IMG/VR virus record: IMGVR_UViG_3300047550_006186
Source of the DNA: a virus
Reading direction: 5' to 3' (one strand)
Length of the DNA stretch: 64,000 nucleotides
The notes under the pieces are model-generated. The model did no database searches. It was not told the origin of the DNA and saw only the letters and a list, made by a program, of their open reading frames with translations. The translations under genes and the position numbers were made by a program. Shown one piece after another: positions 9,926-44,757 of the stretch; the first letter of the stretch is position 1, and every line of letters starts with the position of its first letter.

Positions 9926-10020
9926 ACTACTGTTGGTTTTTAGGGCGTGGTAGTTCACTATGCGTTTCGCAGCAGCATATTTGAAAATTGGCTGAATTCG
10001 TATTTTGACATCAAAAAGAG

Positions 10021-15801: not shown

Positions 15802-15814
15802 CATGCTGTGATGT

Positions 15815-15995
15815 GAACTATCACCCCCCCTCTAGGGCTGTAGCTGGCTGCTTGATCGTAGTGGCTGACAGCAGACCCCAATGAGTGAGAATACCTGTGA
15901 CCACATCCACAGGCGCAAGAGCCAGTTCCTTCCCCACATGATCTATATTCCACGGTTGATGTCCCCAGTTCTTGATGTTGATGGCTGCATATGAC
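15815..15995 (-). mobile_element. Solo right-end + 3' tnpB remnant of IS200/IS605-family element A
   Basis: gtgaactatcacc...ctagggctgtagctggctgcttgatcgtagtggctgaca...ccacaggcgc...tgatgtccccagtt matches RE/3' region of copies at 39711, 50165, 25004. Confidence 0.5.
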
Positions 15996-16682: not shown

Positions 16683-17009
16683 TTATTGTTCCACAGGCTC
16701 TAATTTGGCCAATCCGTAAAGTTGATTGGCCATCCGTTTGAGATTCAGTCTATTCAACTGCTGTAAAAGAGCAAGAGTGCGTCGATCTTGGGTATCTTTT
16801 TGTACAAGAGGCAAAGCTTTGTCAATTTCCATCTGTAGAACCATGATCAGATCAGCCACAGTTGTCACGTTGCTGTAGCTGTCTCTTCTATTAAACGTAT
16901 CCTCTTCTTTCTCCAGGCCAGGAGCGCCTCTTGATAGAGTTTGATTTAATGCTGTTTGTCCTTTGGTGATTTCAACAATCAAATCACGCCATTTTTGTAA
17001 ATCGTTCAT
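16683..17009 (-). CDS. Hypothetical protein (108 aa)
   Basis: ORF track; downstream of lysis cassette on minus strand. Confidence 0.45.
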   Translation of the reverse strand: MNDLQKWRDLIVEITKGQTALNQTLSRGAPGLEKEEDTFNRRDSYSNVTTVADLIMVLQMEIDKALPLVQKDTQDRRTLALLQQLNRLNLKRMANQLYGLAKLEPVEQ

Positions 17010-20751: not shown

Positions 20752-21510
20752 ATGAGAGAGATCAACAAACACAATACAACCTTGTTTTTGATGCAAGTGC
20801 TTGCACATGGTGTGCTGCTGAGCATGCTAGTTTGGGCCAGTTGGCCACTTTGGTTTTTCACCTGCATAGGTTACTTCCTTCTGAGTTGTGTGGGTACTAG
20901 TATTGGTTATCACAGGCTATTTGCCCATGGAAGCTTCCAATCACCCAAATGGTTTGAACAATCCTGCTTGCATCTGGGCAACATGGCATTAGTGGGCAGC
21001 AGCATCAGCTGGACGGCCAGCCACAGAGCGCATCATCACCACTCGGATCAAAGCCCAGCAGACACCCACAGTCCACACCACCATCCCTGGTATCGCATAA
21101 TCCTGTTGGCCATGTTTCAACCCGTAAGCATGCGATATGTGAAAGATCTAGCACGCAACCATGATCATGTTTGGTGGCACAAAAATTATTTTCTAGTTCA
21201 TGGTGCGGTGTGGGGTCTAGGATTGCTTCTGGCACCACAATTCACGGCAGCATTTGTCATTGCACCACAAGCACTAACCTGGATTACGGGTGCCAGCTTG
21301 AACTGGGTGAACCACAAATGGGGCTATAGCAATCACAACACATGCGATCACAGTACCAACAATTGGTTCTACGCATTGGTATTTTGGGGAGAAGGCTGGC
21401 ACAACAACCATCACCACAATCCCAAACGATCCTATTTTGGTGAGCGTTGGTGGGAGATTGACGTTTCTGGCATGATTATCCGAATGATTGAAAAAAAGAA
21501 GTTGACTTAA
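20752..21510 (+). CDS. Delta-9 acyl-lipid/fatty-acid desaturase
   Basis: Three His boxes HRLFAH, HRAHHHHSD, EGWHNNHHHNP; 4 TM architecture. Confidence 0.7.
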   Translation: MREINKHNTTLFLMQVLAHGVLLSMLVWASWPLWFFTCIGYFLLSCVGTSIGYHRLFAHGSFQSPKWFEQSCLHLGNMALVGSSISWTASHRAHHHHSDQSPADTHSPHHHPWYRIILLAMFQPVSMRYVKDLARNHDHVWWHKNYFLVHGAVWGLGLLLAPQFTAAFVIAPQALTWITGASLNWVNHKWGYSNHNTCDHSTNNWFYALVFWGEGWHNNHHHNPKRSYFGERWWEIDVSGMIIRMIEKKKLT

Positions 21511-21587: not shown

Positions 21588-22652
21588 ATGAACAAAGAAT
21601 ACGATTTTCTGGTCTTCATTGGGCGGATGCAGCCACCCACTGTGGCACACTGCTCCATTATCGAGCAAGCTCTCCTAAAATCAAACAAAGTGATAGTGGT
21701 GCTGGGAAGCTGCAATAGTGCTCGCACCCTTCGCAACCCTTTCACATATGATGAGCGAGTTCTCATGCTGCGACGGTGCATGACCAACTCACAAAACGAA
21801 CAGATTATCACAGTGCCCATGGACGACTACACCTACAACGATGAAATGTGGGTGGTCAAGTTGCATGAGACTGTGAACCGTGCAATTTTGGAAAACATTC
21901 CTGGCAATTCACAATATTGCTATAACAACGGTATGATCAACCAGCGTGTGGGCCTGATTGGCCACGCCAAGGACAACACCAGCTACTACCTCAACCTGTT
22001 TCCTGAATGGGGCAGCGAGAACGTGCGCAATATTCCAGGAGTTGATGCCACCAGCCTGCGTGATGCATTTTTTGCACAAGGCATGCAGAGTGTGAACGAC
22101 ACGCTGGTGCGGCCTGGTGTGCGTGAATTTCTGGAGGATTTCATCCAGACCCTTGCTTACATCAACCTGCGCGAAGAGCGTGAATTTGTGGCCAAGTACA
22201 AGAAAGCCTGGGAAGCTGCGCCCTACCCGCCCACGTTCGTCACGGTTGATGCTGTGGTGGTGCAGAGCGGCCACGTGCTGTTGGTCAAGCGGGGAGCCAA
22301 TCCTGGCAAGGGGATGTGGGCCATGCCTGGTGGGTTCCTGGATCCCCTGGAGACCCTGGAACAGGGTGCCATGCGAGAGCTGCGGGAAGAGACCAAGCTC
22401 AAGGTGCCCGAACCTGTGCTGCGTGGCAGCATTGTGGCGCGGGAAACATATGATCATCCGCACCGCAGCAGCCGTGGCCGCACCATCACCACAGCATTTT
22501 TGATCCACCTCAAGCCTGCTGCCAAGTTGCCCAAGGTCAAGGGCAGTGATGATGCAGCAGAGGCTGATTGGGTCAGAATTGCTGACCTGGACCCGCACAC
22601 CTTGTTTGAAGACCACTACCATGTGATCATGAATTTGGTACGCAGGATCTAA
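21588..22652 (+). CDS. natV: Bifunctional NMN adenylyltransferase / Nudix ADP-ribose pyrophosphatase (NatV/NadM-Nudix)
   Basis: N-terminal nucleotidyltransferase (VFIGRMQPPTVAHCSII) + Nudix box GGFLDPLETLEQGAMRELREETKL. Confidence 0.8.
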   Translation: MNKEYDFLVFIGRMQPPTVAHCSIIEQALLKSNKVIVVLGSCNSARTLRNPFTYDERVLMLRRCMTNSQNEQIITVPMDDYTYNDEMWVVKLHETVNRAILENIPGNSQYCYNNGMINQRVGLIGHAKDNTSYYLNLFPEWGSENVRNIPGVDATSLRDAFFAQGMQSVNDTLVRPGVREFLEDFIQTLAYINLREEREFVAKYKKAWEAAPYPPTFVTVDAVVVQSGHVLLVKRGANPGKGMWAMPGGFLDPLETLEQGAMRELREETKLKVPEPVLRGSIVARETYDHPHRSSRGRTITTAFLIHLKPAAKLPKVKGSDDAAEADWVRIADLDPHTLFEDHYHVIMNLVRRI

Positions 22653-22790
22653 AAAATATCCCCTGTGCTGGGGATAAAAAACCACTTTACAAGCAATTTT
22701 TTTGGTGTTATTGTGGTAACATAAAGCACATGGACTAACAGCCTAGGATAGACCAGGGCTGAAACAACAACTGCAAAGGAGTTTTGCACC

Positions 22791-24206
22791 GTGGATAATG
22801 CTAACATTCTACTAACTGCCATGTCACTCAGGGCAGACAGTTACAAGTATTCTCACCATAATCAGTTACCTCCTGGTACAACCACCATCAACAGTTACAT
22901 TGAAAGCCGCGGTGGCAAGTTTGCCAACAGTGTGTTTTTTGGCCTGCAGGCCTGGATCAAGAGCTACCTGCTGCGACCGCTCACCAAGGCAGACATTGAT
23001 CTCACAGAAGAGATTGTGCTGGCTCATGGCGAGCCCTTCAACCGCGAAGGTTTTGATCGCATCATCAACGTGCATGGTGGCCATTGGCCAGTTGTGATCG
23101 AAGCTGTGCCTGAGGGCACTGTTCTGCCAGTTCGCAATGTGCTGGTGCAGATCCGCAACACGGATCCCACGATGCCCTGGGTAACCAGTTTCCTGGAAAC
23201 TGCTCTGCTGCGTGGTATTTGGTATCCCACCACAGTGGCCAGTCTCAGCTGGCATTGCAAGCAGATGATCCTGGATGCTTTGCGCAAGAGCAGCGAGGAT
23301 GCTCTAGGTCAGATCAACTTCAAGCTGCATGATTTTGGTGCACGAGGAGTCAGCAGCGGTGAAAGTGCTGCCCTGGGTGGCATGGCCCACCTGGTGAATT
23401 TCATGGGCACAGACACTGTGGAAGCTCTGGTGGCTGCCCGCATGCTGTATGGCGCTCAGATGGCAGGGTTTAGTATTCCTGCTATGGAACACAGTACTGT
23501 TACCAGCTGGGGTAGAGAGAACGAGGCATCAGCCTATGAAAACATGGTACGCAATTATGCTCGTCCAGGCAGTTTGGTGGCATGTGTGAGTGACAGCTAT
23601 GACATCTGGAACGCTGTCAGTAATATTTGGGGTGGAAATCTCAAGAGTCTGGTAGAAAACAGTGGTGCTACAATTGTTATTCGTCCCGACAGTGGTGACC
23701 CTCTCACTGTGCCTGTTCGTGTAGTTGAGAAGCTGGGTGAAAAGTTTGGCTTTACTATCAACAACAAGGGGTTTAAGGTTCTACCCAATTGTGTAAGGGT
23801 GATCCAGGGAGACGGTATTACAATTGACAGCATTCCAGTCATTCTCAAGAATCTACTGGATGCAGGATGGAGTGCTGATAACCTTGCCATGGGTATGGGT
23901 GGTGGACTTCTGCAAATGGTCAATCGAGACACAATGAAGTGGGCTATGAAGGCCAATGCCATGGAAATCAATGGAACTTGGAAGGATGTGTTCAAGGATC
24001 CAATTGATGACCCGGGAAAGACTAGCAAGAAGGGGGTGCTCAGTCTGGTCCGAAGCAATGGTATTGGCAGCAGCACATGGATTACCAAGCGGCGTGATGA
24101 GATGGCTATGGGTGAACAGGATCTTCTTGTGCCAGTGTTCAAAAATGGTGAGCTGCTGGTAGACGTAACCTTTGATCAGGTACGTGCCAACAGTCACCGA
24201 GGGTGA
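22791..24206 (+). CDS. nadV: Nicotinamide phosphoribosyltransferase (NAMPT/NadV)
   Basis: GTG start after AAGGAG SD; DSYKYSH motif and NAPRTase-family length (471 aa). Confidence 0.85.
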   Translation: MDNANILLTAMSLRADSYKYSHHNQLPPGTTTINSYIESRGGKFANSVFFGLQAWIKSYLLRPLTKADIDLTEEIVLAHGEPFNREGFDRIINVHGGHWPVVIEAVPEGTVLPVRNVLVQIRNTDPTMPWVTSFLETALLRGIWYPTTVASLSWHCKQMILDALRKSSEDALGQINFKLHDFGARGVSSGESAALGGMAHLVNFMGTDTVEALVAARMLYGAQMAGFSIPAMEHSTVTSWGRENEASAYENMVRNYARPGSLVACVSDSYDIWNAVSNIWGGNLKSLVENSGATIVIRPDSGDPLTVPVRVVEKLGEKFGFTINNKGFKVLPNCVRVIQGDGITIDSIPVILKNLLDAGWSADNLAMGMGGGLLQMVNRDTMKWAMKANAMEINGTWKDVFKDPIDDPGKTSKKGVLSLVRSNGIGSSTWITKRRDEMAMGEQDLLVPVFKNGELLVDVTFDQVRANSHRG

Positions 24207-24218
24207 TTTTTGATCAGG

Positions 24219-24250
24219 TCAAACCGCAGTCTACTGTAGACTGCGGTTTT
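24219..24250 (+). terminator. Rho-independent terminator after nadV
   Basis: aaccgcagtcta-ctg-tagactgcggtt then ttctgtg. Confidence 0.6.
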
Positions 24251-24395
24251 CTGTGACAATTATTGAGTGCATTAAACCTTTTCTTTTAGAATATCAAGTG
24301 TTTTTTGTTTGACACAAGCATGAGTTATATGCATTCTAAGAGTGCTACATTTGAGAGATAAATTATCTCTCAAATGTAGTTCGAAGGACATACTC

Positions 24396-24953
24396 ATGCA
24401 ATCACGATTTCAATCTTGGCACGAGCTAAGAGATTTAATTGCTCAGCGTAGTCTGATCAAAAATCAGAATTTCAAGCTCAGTAGTGGTTTAGATAGCAAT
24501 TATTTCTTTAACATGAAAATGACCATGTTAAATCCACAAGGTATTAATTGGATCACTGATGCTATCTTGGATATATTAGAAGGTTTACAATTCTCAAGCG
24601 TGGGTGGCATGGCAGTAGGTAGTGTGCCAATCACATCTAGTATTACTACCAAAAGTTTGTTTCGAGACAAATATTATCCATCTTTTTTTGTTAGAAAAGA
24701 AATTAAAGATCATGGGTTTCAAACCAAGATTGATGGTTACTGTGATCCAAATACAAAAGTGGTATTGATAGAAGATGTCACCACAACTGGTAAAAGCATT
24801 CTTCATGCAGTCAACGCTGTTGAACAAATTGGATGCACAGTTGATACGGTGATCACAGTTGTAGACAGGTTGGAAGGGGCAAGCTTAAATCTTTCCTCTA
24901 GAGGTATTAATTTGATTCCATTGTATATAAAAACAGATTTTGAACATGCATGA
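24396..24953 (+). CDS. Type I phosphoribosyltransferase (orotate PRTase-like)
   Basis: OPRT-like FKLSSGLDSNYFFN and PRPP-binding VVLIEDVTTTGKSI; AAGGA SD. Confidence 0.6.
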   Translation: MQSRFQSWHELRDLIAQRSLIKNQNFKLSSGLDSNYFFNMKMTMLNPQGINWITDAILDILEGLQFSSVGGMAVGSVPITSSITTKSLFRDKYYPSFFVRKEIKDHGFQTKIDGYCDPNTKVVLIEDVTTTGKSILHAVNAVEQIGCTVDTVITVVDRLEGASLNLSSRGINLIPLYIKTDFEHA

Positions 24954-25003
24954 TTATTTTGATCATTATGCATGATCTACATAGATTATGATTAATCGGG
25001 CAG

Positions 25004-25581
25004 GTGAACTACCACGCCCTAAAGGTCTGTGGCTTCCTGCTTAATCGTAGTGGCTGACATCTCACCCCAATGAGTGAGAATATCTGTCATCACATCCACA
25101 GGCGCTTGGGGCAGTTCCTGCCCTGCATGATCTATTGTCCATTGTTGATGTCCCCAGTTGCGGATGTTCACTGCTGCATTCGTGTCCCTGTGCTGAGTGA
25201 TTCCACATTCATCGCAATGATATTCTCTTTGCTTGAGATCCATGTGACTTTTGCGGGTGCCACATGCACTACAGGTCTTGCTACTGGGTAGCCACTGATT
25301 GATCTTGACAAGATAGTGGCCTTGCATTTGGCATTTGTAGGCCAATGCACCAATCAACATAGCCCAACTGGCATCAGCTATGCACTTGGCTGCGGGCTTG
25401 CTTTTTCTTTTCATCTCATCAATTTTCAGTGTTTCAACTGACACCAGGTCATGTGATTTGGCTATTCTCGCACTTGTCTGATCCTATAGCGATATCGCTG
25501 TTTTATAAATCTATTTGTATAATCTATTCAAAAAGCCGCTATCCATCCAGGGGCTAAAGCACCCTGGCTTTCCGCGGCGGG
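25004..25581 (-). mobile_element. Internally deleted (about 580 bp) copy of IS200/IS605-family element A
   Basis: RE (gtgaactaccacgccctaaagg...), 3' 430 bp of tnpB and LE (ccgctatccatccagg...ttccgcggcggg) with junction tctgat|cctatagcgatatcgctg. Confidence 0.6.
25019..25444 (-). pseudogene. tnpB: TnpB C-terminal fragment (141 aa)
   Basis: About 90% identical to C-terminus of TnpB copies at 39727 and 50182 (zinc-finger CSACGTRKSH...CDECG). Confidence 0.6.
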
Positions 25582-25595
25582 AGATAAGTAATTGT

Positions 25596-26114
25596 ATGAC
25601 CACACTGAAAGAGTTGACTTGGGAGAGTCATCAAAAAGCTGAGCAAACTGAGATCATGCAACAGTTGTTGAGCAACCAAATTACCAACAGGATGTATTGC
25701 AATTTGGTGTATACAAAATATCTTGTGTTTGCACAATTGGAAAACAGGATAGATTTTGTTACACCATGCTTGCATAGAGCACAAGCTGCCTTGAATGATT
25801 GGCAACAAATGCAATGCAGTTTGCCCAAATGTGTTCCCAGCTTGGAAACATATTTGGAATTGTTGCGAAAATTGGACAGTCATTTTGTATGGGCACATGT
25901 GTACGTGCATTATCTAGCCCCTTTGTATGGAGGACAGATCATCAAAAAGGTTATTCAACACAGATTTCCCACCAGCATGTATGAGTTTGATGACCCTATG
26001 AATGCAATAGCAGAAGTAAGATCAAAGGTGAATTTGGAGATGGCTGAGCAAGCCAATCTGGCATTTGATTATACTACAACATTTTTAAATGAACTTTATC
26101 TTGAGGAAAACTGA
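25596..26114 (+). CDS. ho1: Heme oxygenase
   Basis: LKELTWESHQKAEQTEIMQQL (proximal His helix) and HVYVHYLAPLYGGQIIKKVIQ ([21 protein letters not shown] in HO-1). Confidence 0.75.
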   Translation: MTTLKELTWESHQKAEQTEIMQQLLSNQITNRMYCNLVYTKYLVFAQLENRIDFVTPCLHRAQAALNDWQQMQCSLPKCVPSLETYLELLRKLDSHFVWAHVYVHYLAPLYGGQIIKKVIQHRFPTSMYEFDDPMNAIAEVRSKVNLEMAEQANLAFDYTTTFLNELYLEEN

Positions 26115-26743
26115 TGACTAATTTTATCCAGCTTGTAGACAAAACTGGTCACGCCTTTGAGCAAGTGATCCGCCAACACACCACCTATTTGCAATGCATT
26201 CCCACAGAGGATTTTGGTTGGACAAACTATAGATGGAGCAGCAGACAGTTTAGATTGGCACATGTGGAAAAATTCCAACAACCCAAGTTCAGTGTGTTGC
26301 ACATGGTGATATTTCCGCACGTTTACGATCCCAATCCTATTTTTGGATTTGATATTATTGCCAGCGACACAAAAGCCACAGGTGTATTTTTTGATCTTAG
26401 TCCCACTGTGGGACCAAGCTGCCAATTGTCTACTCAAACATGGCAAGATCCTAGAAATCGACCAGAATGGGGAGATATTTTCAGTGATTATTGGATAGCA
26501 TGTAGACCCTCCTTGGATGAAGCCCAACAAATCTGTAATTTGGCTGTGGACACATTACACCAATATCTGATTGATCTGAGTACAACTGCCAGCAGTTCCA
26601 AGATCAGAGATATAATTCAAGCACAAAATAGATACAGTCTACAACAGCGCAAAAATGAACACACTACCCGTGTGATCCTAAAACTTTTGGGAGAACAAAA
26701 AGGCCAACATTTTATTGAAAACATCCTGTTTCCCACCATTTGA
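26114..26743 (+). CDS. Ferredoxin-dependent bilin reductase (PebS/PcyA/PcyX family)
   Basis: FDBR family segment KFSVLHMVIFPHVYDPNPIFGFDIIASDTKATGVFFDLSP; ATGA overlap with ho1. Confidence 0.7.
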   Translation: MTNFIQLVDKTGHAFEQVIRQHTTYLQCIPTEDFGWTNYRWSSRQFRLAHVEKFQQPKFSVLHMVIFPHVYDPNPIFGFDIIASDTKATGVFFDLSPTVGPSCQLSTQTWQDPRNRPEWGDIFSDYWIACRPSLDEAQQICNLAVDTLHQYLIDLSTTASSSKIRDIIQAQNRYSLQQRKNEHTTRVILKLLGEQKGQHFIENILFPTI

Positions 26744-26986
26744 CACACTTGTCAACTATTGGCACAGGGCGGGGCTGGGATTTGGATACAGATGACCTTT
26801 TGTCTATTTGTGAGAGGTATTGGTGACATGCATTGCACATGCCCCATTCTTCCCCAGGGAACATATTAAAATTCCTGAGATGCAACAAGTGTGGGACAGC
26901 AGTTAAATGTTGCTGCCAGAAATCTGGCCTACTGCAGAGTGACATAATGCTTGTAATATGACAAAAACAGTTTATATTAGCCCTAC

Positions 26987-28411
26987 ATGCACGGAGTACC
27001 AGAAATGAAAAATGTCAACAAAACACATACTAAATCAGTGGACAGGGACGTTGCAAAGATCTACTTGCAGGAAGTGAGTCAAAACAAACTGCTCACTCAT
27101 GCACAAGAAATTGAACTCAGTCAGCAAATTGAAAATGCCAAACAGAATTTGATAGGTGTATTGTTTGCTATTCCCATGTGTGTGAAATATTTTAATCAAC
27201 AGATCATGTTGATTCTCAATGGCACAAGTGATGATTGTGTGGCATTTGATTGGGAAACAGTCAACAGTCAAAGCTTGATGCAAGAGATCACACATTTACA
27301 TGACATAATTGAATTGTATATGCAAAACAATTGTGTGGATTTGAATGCCAGGTTGCAAATTGGTGAAAAAATCAGCCAACTGCCTCTCAAGCTGGCATTT
27401 TTTGATATTGCCAGCAAGCCATTGCTGGACAAAGGCAGCAAATTGAGCCAAGTGCAGGGAGAATTCATGCGATTTGCTGCCAAACATAATATTAGCCGAC
27501 AGGTGTTTTTGGACAATCATTTGGAGCGTGTGCCTTGTTCCACATGGCAATCTTTTGTTGCCACACATGAATGTGTGGTGAAAAACTATCAACAACAAAT
27601 TACAGCCATTTGTGAACCCACTGGTTTGACTGTCAGTGAATTGACCACTGCGCTGGAAAAAATCAGGCAGTGGCAGAAAATCAAAGACAATAGTGTGGAA
27701 ACCATGCTCAAAAGCAACCTACGTTTGGTGGTAAGTGTGGCCAAAAAATATATCAGTGTGAGCAACACTCCCATGTTGGATCTTGTGCAAGAAGGCAATA
27801 TGGGACTGCTCAAGGCTATTGAAAAATACAATTGGAGACTGGGTTATAGATTCAGCACATATGCAACTTGGTGGATCAAGCAATGTGTACTCAAAGCCCT
27901 AAATGAACAACATCGTATCATTCGTGTGCCCAGTCACATGACACAACTGGTCAAAAGAGTGGGCAGAGCACAGGAAGAATTTTTAGCTTCGCATGGTTAT
28001 GAAGCTGGTATAGACGATCTAGCACAAATATTGGAAGTGGACTGTGAACAAATCCGCAAAGTATACACAGTTGCCCAGGGCACCATCAGCTTGGAAACAC
28101 CTATTGGTCAGGAAGAAGATCAGAACCTAGGCAGTGTGTTGGAAGATGTGGATCATGTTAACGCTTTTGACCTATTGGCACATGTGGATGCTCAAGAAAA
28201 CATGAGCAAAATATTGGCTCTACTCACTCCCAAAGAAGAGCGTGTGATTCGCATGCGATTTGGTATTGGCCTGGATAAAGAAAGCACTTTGGAAGACATC
28301 GGCACTGTGATGGGTGTCACACGAGAACGTATTAGGCAAATTGAACTCAAAGCTTTGCAAAAGCTCAAAAGCCCTGAATTTGCCGATAAAATTCAACAGG
28401 CCTGGCAGTGA
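26987..28411 (+). CDS. Sigma-70 family (group 1/2-like) RNA polymerase sigma factor
   Basis: Region 1.2 (AKIYLQEVSQNKLLTHAQEIEL), region 2 (NLRLVVSVAKKYISVSNTPMLDLVQEGNMGLLKAIEKYNWRLGYRFSTYATWWIKQ), region 3 (IRVPSHMTQLVKRV), region 4.2 (LEDIGTVMGVTRERIRQIELKALQKL); likely start ATG 27005 after GGAG. Confidence 0.85.
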   Translation: MHGVPEMKNVNKTHTKSVDRDVAKIYLQEVSQNKLLTHAQEIELSQQIENAKQNLIGVLFAIPMCVKYFNQQIMLILNGTSDDCVAFDWETVNSQSLMQEITHLHDIIELYMQNNCVDLNARLQIGEKISQLPLKLAFFDIASKPLLDKGSKLSQVQGEFMRFAAKHNISRQVFLDNHLERVPCSTWQSFVATHECVVKNYQQQITAICEPTGLTVSELTTALEKIRQWQKIKDNSVETMLKSNLRLVVSVAKKYISVSNTPMLDLVQEGNMGLLKAIEKYNWRLGYRFSTYATWWIKQCVLKALNEQHRIIRVPSHMTQLVKRVGRAQEEFLASHGYEAGIDDLAQILEVDCEQIRKVYTVAQGTISLETPIGQEEDQNLGSVLEDVDHVNAFDLLAHVDAQENMSKILALLTPKEERVIRMRFGIGLDKESTLEDIGTVMGVTRERIRQIELKALQKLKSPEFADKIQQAWQ

Positions 28412-28496: not shown

Positions 28497-28742
28497 ATGC
28501 GTAAACGTATTATGGGGTCTACCTCTGCTCAAGCCAAAAAACCTGCCAATAAAACTCTAGTGTATTGTACTCTCAATGATAGCAAATGCAAGGGACTGAT
28601 TGTTCTCAAAACTGAATATCAGCTCACAGTACAAATGCCCACTGGGTGTGTTTTGCACATGGTTCGCCCACAAGGACGCAAACTGTATGTGTGTTATGCA
28701 GGTCAACTGGAATTTGTCAGTGATGGATGGGCTACAACCTAG
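28497..28742 (+). CDS. Hypothetical small basic protein (81 aa)
   Basis: ATG in frame of ORF 28314..28742; preceded by perfect palindrome gtgcaatat-tat-atattgcac (28468-28488). Confidence 0.35.
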   Translation: MRKRIMGSTSAQAKKPANKTLVYCTLNDSKCKGLIVLKTEYQLTVQMPTGCVLHMVRPQGRKLYVCYAGQLEFVSDGWATT

Positions 28743-28783
28743 TGAACTACCACACCCTAATGGTGTGGTAGTTCACTCAGTGT
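28741..28783. repeat. GTGAACTACCAC palindromic repeat (15-bp perfect hairpin)
   Basis: gtgaactaccacacc-ctaat-ggtgtggtagttcac; family shared with IS element A right end. Confidence 0.6.
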
Positions 28784-30078: not shown

Positions 30079-30379
30079 CTGCGAGCGGAAGACCACTGGC
30101 TTGTCAAGCCAGTGGATGGATAGCGAGTGGATAAATTATTTTTGATATATTGCATTTCTTTCAATTTCACAGCATAAATAAGCTGTCACTTTAACAAGTG
30201 GACTAGGGCAGGAAGTGCCCAGTACGCCTGTGGAGTCCGATCAGACCTGTGGGGCTGGTGGTTGTGCTAGGACGCACATAAAACCCCAGAAATGGGGCAC
30301 GCGATAACCAAGCACACAAACCCCACGGGCAAGGACTACGACGCAGGAAGCTACAGTCCTTTAGGGCGTAGTACTTCAC
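30079..30379 (+). mobile_element. About 300-bp MITE related to IS element A (diverged LE + shared interior + RE)
   Basis: gcgagcggaagaccactgg...gccagtggatggatagcgag (LE-like), interior ggactagggcaggaagtgcc, RE cgcaggaagctacagtcctttagggcgtagtacttcac. Confidence 0.45.
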
Positions 30380-31201: not shown

Positions 31202-31644
31202 GTATTACATATTTTCATTCATTTCGCAAGTGTTTGTATGCAATTATTAAAAACCAATAAAAGATACATATGATTACCTATTTGGCTGATTCCTTGAATT
31301 CAAGGAAATCAATTTAGACTACTTGATTCAGTTATAAATCATTGGGGTAGACGAAATCAATTCTGGCGAGTGGGCTTGGCCCAGCAACGGATAGAACATG
31401 CATGCGAAGAAAACGGCGTCCGGTTAACTCGCGTACATGCAGCATACACATCGCAAACTTGCAGTGCATGCGGGGTCAAACACAAGCAATCGCGCCAAGG
31501 CGAACGATTCTCGTGTTTGAGTTGTGGATATGAAGTAGATGCCGACTTGAATGGCGCTATCAATATCCGCAACAGAGGAGCATATAGTCCCTCTGTTAAA
31601 AAAATATAAGATCATTTATAGAAATATATGATCTCAATAACTAT
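31202..31644 (+). mobile_element. Internally deleted copy of IS200/IS605-family element B
   Basis: LE (gtattacatattttcattcatttcgcaag...) and RE (...aacagagggactatatgctcctctgtt...ctcaataactat) identical to element at 48641-50029 in inverse orientation; retains only last 79 codons of tnpB. Confidence 0.6.
31370..31609 (+). pseudogene. tnpB: TnpB C-terminal fragment (79 aa)
   Basis: 77/79 identical to C-terminus of ORF 48676..49794. Confidence 0.6.
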
Positions 31645-35377: not shown

Positions 35378-36694
35378 CTAGTACAAACAAGCAGCGATAG
35401 CATAAATCAGTATCCCGCTCTTTGTAGATGAAAATCTAGAAACAGCACTCGTTACCGAACTCAGCTGAACACGATACTTCAATTTCGCGTTTTTGATCGA
35501 GTTGTGAAAATCAACCCATGAAGTGATTTTGGTGATATCAAGCCCGTCTTTCTTCCATTGATTCAGTGGTTTGATGTCATCCAACTTCAGTGGCGGATAC
35601 ATACACAGTGATTTTTGATATTTGTAGTTGACCCTACGGGCGATTTCCCAGGCCGCGGCACAGGGGTCAGGTAGTTCCGAATGCAAGAGGTTACCAATTG
35701 TGCTCGAGTAAGCGCAGTTGACCTCGGTTACTTCAATGCCCAGTTGATCCGATAGTTTTGTGATAGTCCATTGAAATAGCTCCCTATTCCATTGGTTGTT
35801 GACCAACCTGTTGAAGTTGCGACCTTTTTTGGCATCTCTGGCACCCATTGTTAGCTGTTCGATGCCAATTTCGCTAACTCGATAATGCCTAGCCAATCGA
35901 ATGATTGCGTGAGCTATTTCCTTGGTCTCGTGATCTCGCTTGTTGTCATCAACTCTTGATTCTTTGCTCCAAGCGTAAACCTTTGATTTGACTAGATGTT
36001 CTCGTCCATCTTTGAAATCAATTATTGTGATACCAATATAATTTGGGTTTTGGTCAATGCCCATTATGCGATAGTTCAAATGGTTAAGGATTATTGGTTG
36101 TTTTTCTTGTTCGAAACTCAAATAAATTTGACCTCTCTTGAGTTGGACTTGAATTGGGATTGATCCAATATTGTTAATCAGATGCTGGATTTGTTTGCGT
36201 TGATTGCGACCAACTTGAAATGGGATTTCGACTCTTGTGTGTTTATTTGGCTTGTAGATCAAAATATCGTCAGCTAACTTACTGAAATCAAACAATCTAT
36301 TTGACTTTTGAACAGCTTCGCCTTGTAGCATCATTGGTCTGAGTCGCAGTTGGTGCCATTCGGATGTGGTGATTTTCCCACTAGATCGCTTGAAAAAATT
36401 GGCTCTGCTGCCCCACACAATTTTGGCAGATTTGCGTTGACCTGATTTGATCTGTGATTGGTGCGCTGCATATTGGGTTTGTGCATCTAGGATCGCACAT
36501 TGAGCTATCCAGGAATTCACCGAGTCTTCGTTGTTGGATTTAGGATTTGACCATCTCTCTTTGACCAGAGATCTGATTTCTTTTTGCTTCAACCCTTGGC
36601 TAGTTCGCTCGTAAGCATACCGAAATATTGCAGAGTACTGCAATTGATAGGGCAAAAGCACAATCGGCGTTGAAAGTTTGAGTGTGGTAATCAT
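35378..36694 (-). CDS. tnpB: IS607-family TnpB (OrfB)
   Basis: 438 aa; RuvC-like/zinc-finger C-terminus, IS607-type accessory protein adjacent to serine recombinase. Confidence 0.65.
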   Translation of the reverse strand: MITTLKLSTPIVLLPYQLQYSAIFRYAYERTSQGLKQKEIRSLVKERWSNPKSNNEDSVNSWIAQCAILDAQTQYAAHQSQIKSGQRKSAKIVWGSRANFFKRSSGKITTSEWHQLRLRPMMLQGEAVQKSNRLFDFSKLADDILIYKPNKHTRVEIPFQVGRNQRKQIQHLINNIGSIPIQVQLKRGQIYLSFEQEKQPIILNHLNYRIMGIDQNPNYIGITIIDFKDGREHLVKSKVYAWSKESRVDDNKRDHETKEIAHAIIRLARHYRVSEIGIEQLTMGARDAKKGRNFNRLVNNQWNRELFQWTITKLSDQLGIEVTEVNCAYSSTIGNLLHSELPDPCAAAWEIARRVNYKYQKSLCMYPPLKLDDIKPLNQWKKDGLDITKITSWVDFHNSIKNAKLKYRVQLSSVTSAVSRFSSTKSGILIYAIAACLY

Positions 36695-36707: not shown

Positions 36708-37310
36708 TTATGCTTGTTCTGTAGAAACCGCATCAATTAGGCATTTTTTTGCGCTTTTTAGTACTTTGCGTCTATTGCTGTACATCTTCATTGAGAAATG
36801 ATGAATGATTGAAATTAGATCTTGTGTCAATTCAGTTTCAAACGGAGTTATCTCGGCGTCATTTATGACAACAATTTTTGTGTTATATCGATCGAATAGT
36901 CTGGTGAAATAATCAAAACCAAATCGAGTAAGTCGATCTCGATATGTCACATAGACTGTGTCTACATTACCGGACATAACTAGATCCAATAACTCATTGA
37001 ATCCTTTACGATTTTCGTTCATGCCGCTGGCTATATCACTGATCGTCTGAACTGGATATCCTTGTTTAATAACAAAGTCTTGCACCAATTGCTGTTGACT
37101 AATAAGATCAGACTCCTGTTTCTTGTCACTGACTCGAGTGTAAGCTACGTGTATCCTCGGTCCTGATGTTGATTTGATTTCTGGGTAATAGAGATAACTG
37201 CTCTTCCCGACCCTAATGAAGTCAACTGTGTTGTTAATTCGCCAGTTCCGCAAAGTCTGTTTGCTAATGGCATATTTTTTCATAAATTGGCGTGCTGTGA
37301 TATATTTCAT
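36708..37310 (-). CDS. tnpA: IS607-family serine recombinase (TnpA) with N-terminal MerR-like HTH
   Basis: MerR-like HTH (ISKQTLRNWRINN) + resolvase catalytic domain (AYTRVSDKKQ...VYVTYRDRLTRFG). Confidence 0.75.
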   Translation of the reverse strand: MKYITARQFMKKYAISKQTLRNWRINNTVDFIRVGKSSYLYYPEIKSTSGPRIHVAYTRVSDKKQESDLISQQQLVQDFVIKQGYPVQTISDIASGMNENRKGFNELLDLVMSGNVDTVYVTYRDRLTRFGFDYFTRLFDRYNTKIVVINDAEITPFETELTQDLISIIHHFSMKMYSNRRKVLKSAKKCLIDAVSTEQA

Positions 37311-37359: not shown

Positions 37360-38286
37360 ATGGAACAAGAAGGTGAATCACAAGTGGATGGAAAAAAAGA
37401 TAGAGCACTGGGAGCCTTTGTGGGCTTGGCAGTTGGTGATGCACTAGGCGCACCCGTGGAATTTAAAGAACCTGGAGAATTTTCTCCAGTCAAGGATTAT
37501 GCCTACAGCTATGTGTGGCAAATACCACCCGGCTATTGGACAGATGACACCAGCATGGCTGTGTGTTTGGCCGAAAGCATCCTACACAAGAATGATGTGC
37601 TGCCAGACGACATTTTGCAGAGGTTTGTACGCTGGTATGTTCATGGTGAGAACAGCCCTACCGGTAGATGTTTTGATATCGGCAGCACAACCAGAAGCAA
37701 TATCAAGCGTTACATTGACCAAGGAGTATATACACCTGCTCCCAACATTGCGTGGCAGAGTGGCAACGGTGGTATAATGAGATTGAGCCCCGTTGCAGTT
37801 AGATACTGGCAGGATCCAGAACTGGCTGCTGAGTTGAGCATTGTGCAAAGCCAAACAACTCATGGAAGTGATGAATGTGTCAAATGCGCCGCAGATTTGG
37901 GAAAGCTTTTGGCAAGAGCTATTCAAGGACAGCTAATTTGGCAAGAACTAGTTGATCAGCTAGGACAAATTTCTACCAACCAGATCAGCAACAGCGGGCA
38001 AGCCAGCACAACCTTGTTGGCAGCCAAATGGTGTGTGGCTACCACAAGCAATTTTGAAGATGCTGTGTGCAAAGCTGTGAATTTGGGTGGCGATGCTGAC
38101 ACAATTGGGGCTGTGACTGGCCAGATAGCTGGTGGCATTTATGGCTTGAATAGTATTCCAGAACGATGGAAACAAGGACTATATGATTATGCAAGGTTGT
38201 TGGATCTTGCTCAGAGGTTGTTTGATAAAGAATACCACAGGGGCGGGTGTTGGCTGGCTTTCCGCGGCAGCCCCCAAGACCCATGA
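37360..38286 (+). CDS. ADP-ribosylglycohydrolase (ARH/DraG family)
   Basis: GAFVGLAVGDALG, TDDTSM, GGDADTIGAVTGQIAGGIYG. Confidence 0.8.
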   Translation: MEQEGESQVDGKKDRALGAFVGLAVGDALGAPVEFKEPGEFSPVKDYAYSYVWQIPPGYWTDDTSMAVCLAESILHKNDVLPDDILQRFVRWYVHGENSPTGRCFDIGSTTRSNIKRYIDQGVYTPAPNIAWQSGNGGIMRLSPVAVRYWQDPELAAELSIVQSQTTHGSDECVKCAADLGKLLARAIQGQLIWQELVDQLGQISTNQISNSGQASTTLLAAKWCVATTSNFEDAVCKAVNLGGDADTIGAVTGQIAGGIYGLNSIPERWKQGLYDYARLLDLAQRLFDKEYHRGGCWLAFRGSPQDP

Positions 38287-39204: not shown

Positions 39205-39331
39205 GGATCTTCCTTGAGGGTTGACTTGAGTGAACTACCACGCCCTAAAAGGATATGTCTTCAACAAAAAGTCTACCATAAATATTTAGGAGATACACTC
39301 CCACATCAATGTTATCAATAGGTTAGCGCAA

Positions 39332-39710: not shown

Positions 39711-40996
39711 TGTGAACTACCACGCCCTAAAGGGCTGTGGCTTCCTGCTTCATCGTAGTGGCTGATATCTCACCCCAATGGGTGAGAATATCTGCCATCA
39801 CATCCACAGGCGCTTGGGGCAGTTCCTGCCCTGCATGATCTATTGTCCATTGTTGATGTCCCCAGTTGCGAATATTGATGGCTGCATTCGTGTCTCTGTG
39901 CTGTGTTGTGCCGCAGGCGTCGCAATGGTATTCTCGCTGAGCGAGGTCCATGTGACTTTTGCGGGTGCCACATGCACTACAGGTCTTGCTGCTGGGTAGC
40001 CACTGATTGATCTTGACAAGATGATGACCTTGCCTTTGGCACTTGTAGGCCAATGCACCAATCAACATAGCCCAATCCGCATCTGCTATGGCCTTGGCTG
40101 TGGCCTTGCTCTTGCGTCTCATCTCATCAATTTTCAGTGTTTCAACACACACCAGGTCATGTGATTTGGCTATTCTCGCACTTGTCTGATGTATATGGTT
40201 AGTTCTTTGGCAGCGAACCAGATCATGGGTTCGGGCCAGTTTTTGTTTTGCTTTTGTTCTATTCCTACTTGCTTTTTGTTTTCTGGATAGCTTGCGTTGT
40301 AACTGTTTGATACGTGCTTGTTTCTTCCCCAATGGCTTGGGATTTGCAACTAGCTCACCAGTTGATAGTGCTGTGAATTTGCTGTTGACATCCACACCCA
40401 CTGGGTTGGTTATGTTTTGAACCAATGGCAATTCAGTCACATCAACCACAAATGAGGCATACCAACCACCTGGTGTTTGAATCACAGTCACACCCTTAAA
40501 CTTGGGAAGATCTCGATGGAGTACAATCTTGATATCACCAATCTTGGGTAGATATAGCTTGTTGTTGTCAACTCTCACGTTTTGTTGATATCTAAAACTT
40601 ATAGGAGTTGTGTATTTGCTTTTGAACCGTGGGAATCCAGCACCTGTCTTTTTCATATTTTTCAGTGCTGTATCCAAGTCACTTATGCTCTGTTGTAGTA
40701 CTTGACTGTAGGTATCTGATAACCATTTGTTGTGTTTCTTCAATTCAGTCAGTTGTTTGCACATATCAAACTGCCAAACAAACTTTTTAGTATTGGCATA
40801 TTCATCAATGTTGATCTTGAGGAAATGATTGTATAGATATCGCACTGCTCCGCCCACAGAACGCATGTGTTGTTCCTGTTGTGGGGTTGGATAAATTCTA
40901 TAGCGATATCGCTGTTTCATAAATCAATTGATATAATCTATTCAAAAAGCCGCTATCCATCCAGGGCCTAAAGGCGCCTGGCTTTCCGCGGCGGGA
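39711..40996 (-). mobile_element. IS200/IS605-family element A, copy 1 (tnpB only, no tnpA)
   Basis: RE gtgaactaccacgccctaaagggctgtggcttcctgcttcatcgtagtggctgatatctcacc; LE ...ccgctatccatccagggcctaaaggcgcctggctttccgcggcggg; near-identical to copies at 50165 and 63009. Confidence 0.75.
39727..40920 (-). CDS. tnpB: TnpB (IS605 OrfB family, RuvC-like + Zn finger)
   Basis: 397 aa; MKQRYRYRIYPT N-terminus, C-terminal CSACG...CDACG zinc finger; 3 near-identical copies. Confidence 0.85.
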   Translation of the reverse strand: MKQRYRYRIYPTPQQEQHMRSVGGAVRYLYNHFLKINIDEYANTKKFVWQFDMCKQLTELKKHNKWLSDTYSQVLQQSISDLDTALKNMKKTGAGFPRFKSKYTTPISFRYQQNVRVDNNKLYLPKIGDIKIVLHRDLPKFKGVTVIQTPGGWYASFVVDVTELPLVQNITNPVGVDVNSKFTALSTGELVANPKPLGKKQARIKQLQRKLSRKQKASRNRTKAKQKLARTHDLVRCQRTNHIHQTSARIAKSHDLVCVETLKIDEMRRKSKATAKAIADADWAMLIGALAYKCQRQGHHLVKINQWLPSSKTCSACGTRKSHMDLAQREYHCDACGTTQHRDTNAAINIRNWGHQQWTIDHAGQELPQAPVDVMADILTHWGEISATTMKQEATAL

Positions 40997-41301
40997 GATA
41001 ATTATCAATAACTATGCAGGTGCAGCATAGCGGCTATTGCGCCACGTCACCAACGTGACTTTCATGGGTTGGAGACCCATCGTCTGCTCCACTCTTTTCT
41101 ATCTTAAATAGTTGCATGAAAATCCATGAACTGCTCAAAGCCCCAACTATTAGAAGCGTGACCACTCGCAGTGGGCAGATTGATCGTCGCCGCGCAGAAA
41201 GGGTGGAAGATCCCAGGGGATATTTTGCCAAGGCCAGCAGTCCTCTTATGCCCAAACGCAAAAAATAGATATTTCTCTCAAGGTTTCCTGTGTCTTACCT
41301 C

Positions 41302-42229: not shown

Positions 42230-43657
42230 CTACTCCTTTTCTTGGCCTGCACCAAGGGCACGCAACTGCTGTTTCAAGGCATTTTTATCAATCATGCCAC
42301 TGCTGAATCTGCTGAACAGATTGATCACAGTGGCTTGTTTGTTAGCCCCAGTGGGATTTAACAGTTTGTATAACTTGGTGGCATATTCCTGTTTTTCAGT
42401 ATTGGGATCAGCAGCAATGGCAATTGCCCTCACATACCTCAACATGGTCAGCTTGATCTGTTGTTGGTTTTCCAAATAGTTGCCACCAGCACTGCGGAAT
42501 TCCACATATTTTGTTTTGACGTTCACACTTGTGTATTTGTTTTCTGATGGTCTCGACACAATCTGGCTGGCCAAATTCATCAAGCCATTGCGCATGGCGT
42601 CCAATGCTTGCTGTACTGGAAAATTTGGATGTTGATCCATATAGGATTGCATACGATCAATAGCACTCACAGTGTAACTATTGGCTTGCCTACCATATTG
42701 TTCCAACACATATTTGTCGCCCAGGAACAATACCAATTTGATCCAATCAATATTGCGTGTAGTTTGCTCAGGAAGACTCACACTAATATGAAATCCTGTG
42801 CTTGCGTTTGTTAGGCATCCATAATTTCTTGCCCAGTCAAAAACTTTATCTATCCACTCTAGGCTTTGTCCAAGGGGAAAAGGAGGACTGGGAGTGATCA
42901 ATTCCAACCCCGCATATTCACTGTCATCAGGGGTTCTAATGCTGCTGTCTGGTTCCAAAACCCATCGGCCAGGCTCCCTAGATGCACCATGGTAGTCTTT
43001 ACTGGCATTCACAGGAACACCCAGATCACGCTTTATGTCTCTAGCAACATCATAGATTGCATCAGGATTGCCATCAGGGCTAGTTATATGTGGCCAGGAT
43101 AAATTATAGGCTGTTTCAATATCCGTCATGTTGCGGTAGCCTTGGGCTCGCAACCAGTCACTCTCTGTGTAGTCCCTATAGATTTCGTCTCTCAATTCAT
43201 CCTGAGCTTGCCACTCATATTGTTGGTATTGTCTGCCCCCAGGGTTGTCCATGATTTCTTGTATTTCTGGTTCAGTTAGCCCGTCTTGGTTGGCCAATTC
43301 TCTAATATTGTCATCACGTATGTCCAAGAACTTTTCATAGACAATTTCATTCAGCCATTCCATGAAATCGTCACCTAGTTCATCATGTAATTCAGCAGCT
43401 TCTCGTGGGCTCAAAGGATTGTCACCTTGTTGGAAAAAATTCACAATCTGCTCAATATCATAGCATCGTTCATCCTGATCATAATCAGGACCAATATCGA
43501 GCTCATCACCCATTCCACCTTCTATGGGTACCACCAATTCGGCCTCAAAGCCCACCAGGATACCTTGTGCTTGGGCACTGTTGGCAAACGCCTGCAAACT
43601 GCTGGGGCTCATGCTGATTTCTTGTAGAGATTGTTCAAAAAGTTCTACTAATTTCAT
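42230..43657 (-). CDS. Putative amidoligase (glutamine-synthetase-like fold)
   Basis: ELITPSPPFPLGQSLEWIDKVFDWARNYGCLTNASTGFHISVSL resembles the phage GS-like amidoligase family core. Confidence 0.45.
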   Translation of the reverse strand: MKLVELFEQSLQEISMSPSSLQAFANSAQAQGILVGFEAELVVPIEGGMGDELDIGPDYDQDERCYDIEQIVNFFQQGDNPLSPREAAELHDELGDDFMEWLNEIVYEKFLDIRDDNIRELANQDGLTEPEIQEIMDNPGGRQYQQYEWQAQDELRDEIYRDYTESDWLRAQGYRNMTDIETAYNLSWPHITSPDGNPDAIYDVARDIKRDLGVPVNASKDYHGASREPGRWVLEPDSSIRTPDDSEYAGLELITPSPPFPLGQSLEWIDKVFDWARNYGCLTNASTGFHISVSLPEQTTRNIDWIKLVLFLGDKYVLEQYGRQANSYTVSAIDRMQSYMDQHPNFPVQQALDAMRNGLMNLASQIVSRPSENKYTSVNVKTKYVEFRSAGGNYLENQQQIKLTMLRYVRAIAIAADPNTEKQEYATKLYKLLNPTGANKQATVINLFSRFSSGMIDKNALKQQLRALGAGQEKE

Positions 43658-44718: not shown

Positions 44719-44757
44719 TCGTGAACTACCACGCAGAGCGTGGTAGTTCACTCAGCT
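44719..44757. repeat. GTGAACTACCAC palindromic repeat (14-bp stem) between convergent genes
   Basis: gtgaactaccacgc-agag-gcgtggtagttcac. Confidence 0.55.

Follow-up and report, generated by a model that had tools for sequence, protein, structure and literature searches.

Introduction

Adjacent ho1 and pcyX-like genes have been described in the large freshwater phages TP6_1, BML_S_1, CB_1, and CB_2 (Chen et al. 2020). The HemO protein of phage CB_2 makes biliverdin (BV) IX-alpha, and the neighboring enzyme, named PcyA/X, is a true PcyA without the PcyX-specific Asp55, which makes phycocyanobilin (PCB) and is able to charge phytochrome (PMC11480375). Iron release, phytochromes, and BBAG globins were discussed as possible purposes of the bilin (PMC11480375). 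Marine pelagiphages have a two-gene cassette of PhiHemO and PcyX (PDB 5owg; Pelagibacter phage Mosig), an enzyme that makes phycoerythrobilin (PEB). The AX clade, which comprises alphaproteobacterial PcyA and phage PcyX, was defined by Rockwell et al. (2023; PMC10151467).

Here we describe a locus in the IMG/VR virus record IMGVR_UViG_3300047550_006186, of which a stretch of 64,000 nt was analyzed (the window; all positions are counted from its first nucleotide). A compact heme oxygenase (HO) gene is directly followed by a gene for a ferredoxin-dependent bilin reductase (FDBR), and an internally deleted copy of an insertion sequence (IS) lies immediately upstream of both. The locus resembles the freshwater phage hemO-pcyA/X cassettes in having a compact HO directly upstream of an FDBR of about 210 aa, which we place in the AX clade, within a large phage genome. 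As in the freshwater enzyme, the Asp55 of PcyX is lacking and Glu is kept. The hosts proposed for the freshwater phages are not cyanobacteria; the window has no cyanophage marks. It differs from these cassettes, with CB_2 compared by description only, in having NAD-salvage genes on one side and a sigma-70 gene on the other, as well as in the presence of an IS insertion. In contrast to the freshwater cassettes, alaS was not found among the window genes screened.

With the pelagiphage PcyX cassettes, the locus shares the two-gene order, overlapping genes, the FDBR clade, and the best sequence match, whereas the diagnostic residues are different. With PcyA of cyanobacteria and cyanophages (2d1e, 2g18; PcyA of P-SSM4), the FDBR shares the full Glu76/His88/Asp105 triad and the best structural match. 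Unlike these proteins, it is about 40 aa shorter, lies outside their clade at 24%–30% identity, and has no phycobilisome-bearing host context. The alphaproteobacterial AX-clade PcyA BRADO1265 of Bradyrhizobium ORS278 shows the same four residues at the diagnostic positions (PMC13446030 Table 2). It is, however, a bacterial protein linked to a bacteriophytochrome and alaS, and the bacterial relatives that we found were only about 29%–35% identical to the window enzyme. We are fairly confident that an AX-clade, PcyA-type cassette with the IS as a polymorphic passenger is the best overall explanation of the locus.

Results

The heme oxygenase and bilin reductase gene pair

The product of the upstream gene matched the Pfam family Heme_oxygenase (PF01126) with E = 8e-15 and 55.6 bits (cut-off 23), and its best PDB matches were HO-2, HmuO, and HO-1 (E = 3.5e-9 and weaker). 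With 172 aa it is shorter than HmuO and HO-1 (roughly 215–240 aa), but it is nonetheless full length for its own family: among 71 distinct homologues from related loci, 70 had 168–190 aa and one had 206 aa. His12, which in the alignment with HO-2 takes the place of the proximal His that binds the heme, was invariant in all 71, as were Glu16 and Gly112-Gly113 of the distal helix; Gln114 was present in 67 of them. By its family match, the proximal His, and the Gly-Gly of the distal helix, the protein is predicted to be a canonical heme oxygenase. An equivalent of Asp140 of HO-1 is missing, which weighs against this assignment; the position is occupied by Pro109 and is variable across the family.

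The product of the downstream gene matched the Pfam family Fe_bilin_red (PF05996) with E = 3.4e-26 and 92.7 bits (cut-off 31). The initial annotation of the sequence had proposed a heme oxygenase and a bilin reductase leading from heme via biliverdin to a phycobilin, and the Pfam and PDB matches, the predicted fold, and the coordinates all agreed with this. The two genes were said to overlap by ATGA; the actual overlap is a single nucleotide within TGATG (stop codon TGA 26112–26114, start codon ATG 26114–26116). Both genes lie on the same strand and are probably translationally coupled.

HO would open host heme to BV IX-alpha and thereby free iron and CO. The coupled FDBR would then reduce BV with four electrons, most likely to PCB, because the full Glu/His/Asp triad of PcyA is kept. 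In PcyA enzymes, this reduction of BV IX-alpha proceeds through 18(1),18(2)-dihydrobiliverdin. The pair was identified as an auxiliary metabolic pair of cyanophage type in the initial annotation. The first part of this description is appropriate, but the enzyme belongs to a clade that is found in large non-cyanophage phages, and among cultured phages the rIIA/rIIB proteins of the window are closest to those of Rhodobacteraceae phages.

The bilin reductase has the residues and the predicted fold of PcyA

A database search with the FDBR resulted in 268 homologues, nearly all of 204–216 aa. In the HMMER alignment to Synechocystis PcyA (2d1e), Glu52, His63, and Asp80 aligned with Glu76, His88, and Asp105 (Synechocystis numbering), and Glu182 aligned with Asp220. 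When the window protein and its best 120 homologues were compared, the Glu was kept in 119 of the 121 sequences, and the His and the Asp were kept in all of them. The conserved Asp and His, on which the reductase assignment had been made to depend, were hence confirmed.

According to PMC13446030 (Table 2), the four diagnostic positions are Glu/His/Asp/Asp in cyanobacterial PcyA, Glu/His/Asp/Glu in BRADO1265, Asp/His/Asp/Pro in PcyX, and Ala/Asn/Asp/Asp in PebS, while pre-PcyA proteins have neither the Glu nor the His (definition also in PMC10151467). The window FDBR, with Glu-His-Asp-Glu, carries the pattern of BRADO1265 and is not similar to PcyX, pre-PcyA, or PebS at these sites. In PcyX, Asp55 replaces Glu76 and a Pro stands at the position of Asp220; the window enzyme has Glu52 and Glu182. 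The equivalents of Glu76 and His88, which are missing in pre-PcyA (Pre-1/2/3), are both present. PebS of the PebA lineage has Asn88/Asp105/Asp206 and no His88; the window enzyme has His63. PebS chains were also not retrieved by the PDB sequence search at E ≤ 1, and PebS structures fitted the FDBR model only with TM 0.61–0.68 at 14%–18% identity.

The AlphaFold model of the FDBR, built on 26 family members, had a pLDDT of 96.4. It superposed best on PcyA structures (TM 0.84–0.87), followed by PcyX, PebB, PebA, HY2, and PebS. The top 46 fold matches in the PDB were FDBRs, FDBR-fold PcyA subunits of algal FtsHi motor complexes, or RCCR.

We also calculated a neighbor-joining tree of 78 sequences. 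The clade of the window enzyme comprised PcyX, the Mosig enzyme, and two bacterial relatives, from a Proteobacteria metagenome-assembled genome and from Falsiroseomonas (L012, L013). These two were at the base of the viral clade, while PcyA from cyanobacteria and cyanophages was located outside. As a distance tree with few reference sequences and no support values, it allows a coarse placement, by which the FDBR would belong to the AX clade. The question of the initial annotation, whether the reductase is PebS, PcyA, or PcyX, can thus be answered for the residues (PcyA-type triad, no PcyX or PebS signature) and, at the resolution of this tree, for the AX clade. A scan of representative genomes covered 185,579 species of bacteria and archaea and yielded only two distant relatives of the FDBR, with 29%–35% identity; it used family-specific peptide patterns and was not designed to detect cyanobacterial PcyA. 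Single-protein FDBR scans of genome contigs and of viral contigs gave no matches, and alignment-based scans were needed.

The predicted product is phycocyanobilin

From the residue pattern and the predicted fold, we consider PCB the more probable product. The FDBR could instead be a PcyX-type phycoerythrobilin synthase, which converts BV via 15,16-dihydrobiliverdin to PEB as in the marine pelagiphage cassettes. This is suggested by the best PDB sequence match, which was PcyX 5owg (E = 3.5e-27) ahead of PcyA 2d1e (E = 5.9e-18); PcyA of Synechocystis and Nostoc followed at about 1e-17. The closest enzyme of a cultured phage was likewise the PcyX-type protein of Pelagibacter phage Mosig (33.5% identity), PcyX branches inside or beside the same viral clade in the tree, and the hemO-FDBR architecture is common to both. 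However, Glu52 of the window enzyme aligns with Asp55 of PcyX, as does the Glu of PcyA, and the position of Pro216 is occupied by Glu182 as in BRADO1265. Nearly all viral members that we recovered have Glu-His-Asp, and only 5owg and the Mosig enzyme have Asp-His-Asp-Pro. The predicted structure fits PcyA best, and the single freshwater phage enzyme without Asp55 that was tested produced PCB (PMC11480375). We therefore regard PEB as an unlikely product, and the small remaining probability falls to other outcomes.

Further points stand against a firm assignment of PCB, in addition to the sequence match to PcyX. The back-swap of Asp55 to Glu in PcyX reportedly gave no PcyA. The regiospecificity of FDBRs and the relation of their structure to function were stated to be not reliably predictable (PMC13193486), and by this standard the product cannot be read from the sequence. 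Among the window genes screened against Pfam or PHROGs, we identified no bilin-binding acceptor, no ferredoxin, and no indication of the host.

A deleted IS200/IS605-type element separates the cassette from its upstream neighbor

The DNA upstream of the HO gene was proposed to be a deleted TnpB element, and this was confirmed by alignment to full copies in the same window. In a BLAST comparison of 24900–25650 with the window, 25004–25482 was 93.3% identical to 50167–50645, the 3' 479 bp of full copy A, and 25481–25583 was 93% identical to 51350–51452, the 5' 103 bp of this copy. Between these pieces, tnpB lacks about 705 bp, and the start codon of tnpB is mutated from ATG to ATA (25504–25506). 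Due to this loss, the shifted reading frame, and the mutated start codon, the copy is by its sequence a dead, non-autonomous pseudogene copy, which still has its two ends as well as the 3' 479 bp. The part assigned as the left end (25511–25581) does correspond in essence to the non-coding left end, which extends to 25583, but the remnant also keeps the right end and the 3' 40% of tnpB. The residual open reading frame (ORF) is 89% identical to the C-terminus of the 397 aa TnpB at 50182–51375, and the OrfB_IS605 and HTH domains of the full copies are missing from it. BLAST similarity to the IS that extended to 25597, into the HO start codon, was rejected as chance similarity of the flank; in the multi-copy alignment the element ends at 25583.

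Full copies A (50167–51452) and B (39712–40997), both on the minus strand, each encode a TnpB of 397 aa (50182–51375 and 39727–40920) with HTH_OrfB, OrfB_IS605, and TNB domains. Copy C starts at 63009 on the plus strand and runs off the window end at 64000, and a further remnant is present at 15813–15990 (minus strand). All aligned copies begin right after TTAC or TTAT and end with ...GGGCGTGGTAGTTCAC. The copy upstream of HO ends 8 nt beyond the right-end hairpin, at 25004 (...GTAGTTCAC). It inserted 3' of TTAT without target duplication, and the other three copies with aligned flanks have TTAC, TTAT, and TTAC at this position. The copies have diverged by 7%–10%; a comparison of A with B gave 50 synonymous and 34 non-synonymous codon differences.

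The TnpB domains, the subterminal hairpins (with modest z values of -2 to -2.4), the TTAY target, and the lack of a duplication place the element, by sequence, in the IS200/IS605 family. It resembles the tnpB-only elements of this family and their non-autonomous derivatives, including the seamless empty site described below. Elements with only tnpB are common in the IS200/IS605 family. Unlike typical members, it occurs in several diverged copies within a phage genome, and the screened window genes contain no Y1 (HUH) TnpA; no Y1_Tnp match was found among the window ORFs scanned, with some small ORFs outside the scan. The same IS family was present with unrelated flanks in four IMG/VR viral contigs. 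Annotated TnpB proteins of phages and plasmids showed at most 38% identity to this TnpB and gave no clue to the host.

The insertion is late and polymorphic

Three public contigs from other sequencing runs, recovered by exact-protein look-ups (L001, L102, L104), were 98.3%–98.9% identical to the window on both sides of the IS and contained a precise empty site, GCAG|ATAAGTAATTGTATG. The sequence across the junction reads ...GATTAAT(nnn)GCAG|ATAAGTAATTGTATGACC..., with no duplication and no footprint. Two more contigs were 100% identical to the window and end inside the IS, one on the PRTase side with the right-end junction (L105; the phosphoribosyltransferase-like gene is listed in Table 1) and one on the HO side with the left-end junction (L103). 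Since both junctions were present in further short-read assemblies, it is unlikely that the insertion is an artefact of this one assembly; the runs of L103 and L105 could derive from the same study as the window. Runs SRR35181308 and SRR35181309 contain the occupied allele, and runs ERR10034890, ERR10034882, and SRR23086384 contain the empty one. The exact 31-nt start region of HO had no match in JGI metagenome contigs and the empty-site junction had none in IMG/VR, and further alleles were obtained only through the exact-protein look-ups.

Excision of IS200/IS605 elements is seamless. For this reason, the empty sites of the closest relatives do not by themselves establish the direction of the event. 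The direction was settled by the more distant relatives, which are IS-free and have a conserved gene order. Four contigs with 63%–67% protein identity (L002–L005) have the same genes without the IS, in the order NadM/Nudix, NadV, (methyltransferase), PRTase, HO, FDBR, sigma-70, and their intergenic region is recognizably conserved. In L010 and L014–L018 NadM/NadV (where the contig reaches), HO, FDBR, and sigma-70 are kept. HO was located directly upstream of the FDBR gene in 78 of 80 IMG/VR contigs encoding a family member, and none of the fetched flanks contained TnpB. The comparison indicates that the cassette is old and vertically maintained, and that the IS is a late, polymorphic insertion. 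By this reading, the cassette is an old, vertically kept part of a large-phage lineage, and the IS is a polymorphic passenger and not the vehicle of the genes. The IS inserted precisely 3' of TTAT, at a distance of 12 nt from the HO ATG and antisense to the operon, inside a conserved intergenic region of 62 nt.

It had also been suggested that the element marks an IS-mediated acquisition of the cassette. Physical adjacency is the only observation in favor of this. The exact empty sites in genomes with 98%–99% identity, the conserved IS-free locus of distant relatives, and the 78 of 80 viral loci with the cassette and without TnpB contradict it, and moreover the IS is present on one side only and its full copies carry no cargo. 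The empty site together with the synteny refutes the acquisition by the IS, to which we give practically no chance.

Table 1. Positions of the features at the HO-FDBR locus within the window.
Feature	Position	Strand	Remarks
Phosphoribosyltransferase-like (PRTase) gene	24396..24953	+	Weak match to Pfam Pribosyltran, E = 9.4e-4
First 50 nt of the PRTase-HO intergenic region (62 nt before the insertion)	24954..25003	+	Contiguous with 25584-25595 in L001, L102, L104
Internally deleted non-autonomous IS copy, 580 bp	25004..25583	-	Aligned to full copies of the 1286-bp IS200/IS605-type tnpB-only element
Right-end subterminal imperfect hairpin	25012..25032	-	TTTA loop; DNA fold z about -2.4
Residual ORF, 141 aa, C-terminal zinc-ribbon/TNB part of TnpB	25019..25444	-	GTG start; Pfam Cas12f1-like_TNB only, E = 3.8e-21
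Deletion junction	25481..25482	-	2-nt microhomology, frameshift
Left-end subterminal imperfect hairpin	25547..25567	-	TTTA loop; z about -2.0; within non-coding left end 25507-25583
TTAT target, presumed target-adjacent motif	25584..25587	-	Adjoins the left end on its 5' side; seen in the aligned flanks of four copies and in empty-site contigs
TAAGTA motif, candidate compact promoter	25585..25590	+	11 nt before the HO ATG, just outside the IS
Compact heme oxygenase (HO), 172 aa	25596..26114	+	ATG 25596, TGA 26112-26114
Ferredoxin-dependent bilin reductase (FDBR), 209 aa, putative AX clade	26114..26743	+	PcyA-type triad Glu52/His63/Asp80, plus Glu182
Sigma-70-family factor gene	27002..28411	+	Pfam regions 1.2, 2, 3, 4

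Expression of the cassette after the insertion

The TAAGTA motif begins with bases complementary to the TTAT at which the IS inserted. A TAA[AG]TA sequence was present 10–19 nt upstream of the start codon in 9 of 59 predicted genes, while 0.53 ± 0.72 were expected at random (maximum 4 in 2000 trials), and none occurred on the opposite strand of the same segments. Examples precede the genes at 16683–17009 (-), 30439 (+), 35378–36694 (-), 36708–37310 (-), 44748–45605 (-), 52682–53119 (-), and 56094 (+). Related motifs (TAAGTA, TAAATA, TATAAGT, TATATAGT) preceded HO in divergent relatives, whose upstream regions were otherwise unalignable. The TAAGTA motif resembles the late promoter of phage T4, TATAAATA. 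The distribution over the window suggests that TAA[AG]TA is a compact, T4-late-like promoter with very short leaders. Such a start-proximal promoter would survive the insertion. Expression would most likely still start from the retained TAAGTA motif, result from read-through from upstream, or both.

Two observations limit this view. The TAAGTA motif is a statistical association and not a mapped promoter. The HO protein is 100% identical in L001, L102, L103, and L104, and the FDBR is 99% identical to the IS-free allele, but the intactness of the genes is uninformative on their expression after the insertion.

According to the initial annotation, the left end of the IS may supply the promoter. 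An outward promoter, perhaps with a ribosome-binding site, would then drive HO and FDBR. A perfect TATAAT is indeed present on the plus strand at 25518–25523, about 73 nt upstream of the ATG, and the terminus of the IS brings a GGGAG to 12 nt before the ATG, a position held by GTGCAG in the empty site. The TATAAT is, however, also present in the full copies and so not specific for this locus; it has no matching -35 sequence, and the TG is not at the position of an extended -10. The scan for two-hexamer sigma-70 promoters revealed no plus strand promoter in the left end and fewer promoter-like sites than in shuffled sequences, and the promoter of the element itself faces in the opposite direction. 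Relatives that are IS-free express the cassette in spite of lacking the element, and they share the start-proximal motif outside of it. Since the element is antisense, has no plus strand promoter in its left end, and leaves TAAGTA outside, a promoter provided by the IS is unsupported, and we consider it improbable. We also considered whether an A-to-G change specific to this copy had turned TGTATAAT at 25516–25523 into an extended -10. This candidate was rejected: the TG is located at -14/-13 and not at -15/-14, and the TATAAT is also found in the full copies.

Conversely, the insertion could be polar and separate the cassette from an upstream promoter, so that the genes are silent in this haplotype and will decay. 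The split 62-nt intergenic region is strongly conserved with L002-type relatives, including TTGATC-17 nt-TAGATT upstream of the insertion, and the near identity of the ORFs to the IS-free alleles provides no evidence of selection since the insertion. Yet no terminator was predicted on the plus strand across the IS, the start-proximal motif is retained, and further runs yielded identical assemblies of the occupied allele, which is thus no rare dead-end read. We judge silencing of the cassette to be rather unlikely, although somewhat less so than a promoter within the IS, and retain the TAAGTA motif and read-through as the probable routes of expression.

A possible guide function of the IS remnant

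The deleted copy retains the left-end region including the promoter, all of the 3' 479 bp, which is the usual source of the omega RNA, and the right end. It could be a cassette that provides only the omega RNA, is loaded by TnpB of the intact copies, and directs cutting of IS-free alleles of co-infecting phages at TTAT followed by CTGCCCGATTAATC. The sequence adjoining the right end in the window reads CTGCCCGATTAATC... in tnpB orientation, and the last ~20 nt upstream of the IS (24984–25003; minus strand CTGCCCGATTAATCATAATC) would be the guide segment of the omega RNA from this copy. If this were true, cleavage by TnpB would drive the insertion and the linked haplotype of the bilin cassette through the population. 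We regard such a function as speculative and improbable.

At the guide target, the three empty-site alleles read CTGCACGATT..., CTGCGTAATT..., and CTGCCCTATT... Each of these haplotypes has private substitutions at positions 5–7 after TTAT (ACG, GTA, and CCT, compared to CCG in the window). The TTAT, which shares positions with the conserved TAAGTA motif, is the same in all of them. Five tri-allelic columns were counted among the four haplotypes over ~4 kb. Three are in the 50-nt intergenic stretch (24974, 24997, 24999), and two of the five (24997, 24999) are within positions 5–7 of the presumed omega RNA target. The variation may reflect escape of the seed from TnpB homing, or simply a hypervariable spacer. 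Escape is weakened by the density of variable sites, which with 4 in 50 resembles that of another non-coding spacer (16 in 258), by the tri-allelic site at 24974 outside any plausible guide, and by the number of only three empty alleles.

Further IS-related sequences in the window

Within the 64 kb, at least three apparently intact copies and two remnants of this one tnpB-only family are present. A second, divergent TnpB of 372 aa is encoded at 48676–49794 (-); only its TNB domain was detected by Pfam, and its zinc-ribbon region shares ~35% identity with that of the main family. A short TnpB-like fragment is located at 31391–31579 (+). A serine recombinase gene (36708–37310, -; Resolvase domain, E = 4e-21) is followed by an ORF of 438 aa (35378–36694, -) with no Pfam or PHROG match. 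This arrangement may be IS607-like, with the large ORF encoding a very divergent TnpB-like protein. An ORF of 204 aa (51380–51994, -) with a weak PHROG match to HNH endonucleases extends across the left end of copy A and terminates shortly before tnpB. Copy A seems to have inserted into the 3' end of this ORF and to have replaced its last ~24 codons.

Perfect or near-perfect palindromes composed of the terminal 16 nt at the right end of the IS (GGGCGTGGTAGTTCAC) and their complement occur in intergenic regions at 9923–9958, 28742–28776, and 44721–44751, and solo copies of the 16 nt at 30364–30379 and 39230–39245. One palindrome is also present in L001. They could be minimal, PATE-like elements derived from the IS, or hairpins of the phage which the IS end resembles.

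Gene neighborhood and phage identity

Pfam and PHROGs screens of the window revealed typical phage genes (rIIA, rIIB, a 3TM holin, a GH19 endolysin-like protein), genes for replication (a fragment of DNA polymerase III alpha) and for protein turnover (ClpP), and genes for arginase, fatty-acid desaturase, NadM/Nudix and NadV of NAD salvage, a sigma-70 factor, ADP-ribosylglycohydrolase, and a major-vault-protein-like protein. With Rfam at the gathering threshold, four tRNAs were found, and neither the IS nor the operon contained a known RNA family at this threshold. For rIIA and NadV, the closest matches among cultured phages came from Rhodobacteraceae phages (~35% protein identity), and no cyanophage showed DNA or close protein similarity to the window. 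The genome looks like that of a large phage encoding rIIA/rIIB, and no feature marks a cyanophage. Relatives of the cassette are located on IMG/VR viral contigs of 250–518 kb, which also carry T4-type spanin and tail genes.

The longest ORF of the PRTase gene starts with GTG at 24342; an exact-protein look-up retrieved the 185 aa product from ATG 24396 in public gene calls. The gene directly precedes HO in the IS-free relatives L002–L005 and is also upstream in L014–L017. The sigma-70 ORF is open from 26987, and its probable start is ATG 27002, which is preceded by GGAG. It adjoins the cassette in L001–L007, L010, L011, and L014–L018, and is absent from this position in further relatives (L008, L019 onward). 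In the closest clade (L002–L005, L010, L014–L018), the cassette has a fixed position between the NAD-salvage block (NadM/Nudix, NadV, PRTase-like; 21588–24953) and the full-length sigma-70-family factor (26987–28411). The spacer between FDBR and sigma-70 (26744–27001, 258 bp) is ~190 bp longer than in the relatives with 63%–67% identity. It is only 92% identical to that of L001, while the flanking genes are 98%–99% identical, and no repeats, IS remnants, or RNA families were found in it.

Other genes of auxiliary metabolism type encode members of the arginase family (2063–3052), a fatty-acid desaturase (20752–21510), an ADP-ribosylglycohydrolase (37360–38286), a saccharopine dehydrogenase (56094–57500), and an amidoligase-like protein (42230–43657). 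An 843 aa protein (58961–61492, +) has the shoulder and repeat domains of the major vault protein (MVP_shoulder, E = 3.8e-20) in a phage genome.

Discussion

The bilin cassette of the window is a further example of the published type, and the IS insertion upstream of it is well documented but ordinary. The case alone leaves the current understanding unchanged and adds one well-anchored example to the published pattern. In our survey, the phage-associated AX clade was overwhelmingly PcyA-like (Glu-His-Asp), and the PcyX-like proteins with Asp-His-Asp formed a small offshoot. Occupied and empty alleles of the IS605/TnpB element coexist in near-identical phage genomes, and thus provide a natural system to address whether TnpB homing takes place in lytic phage populations.

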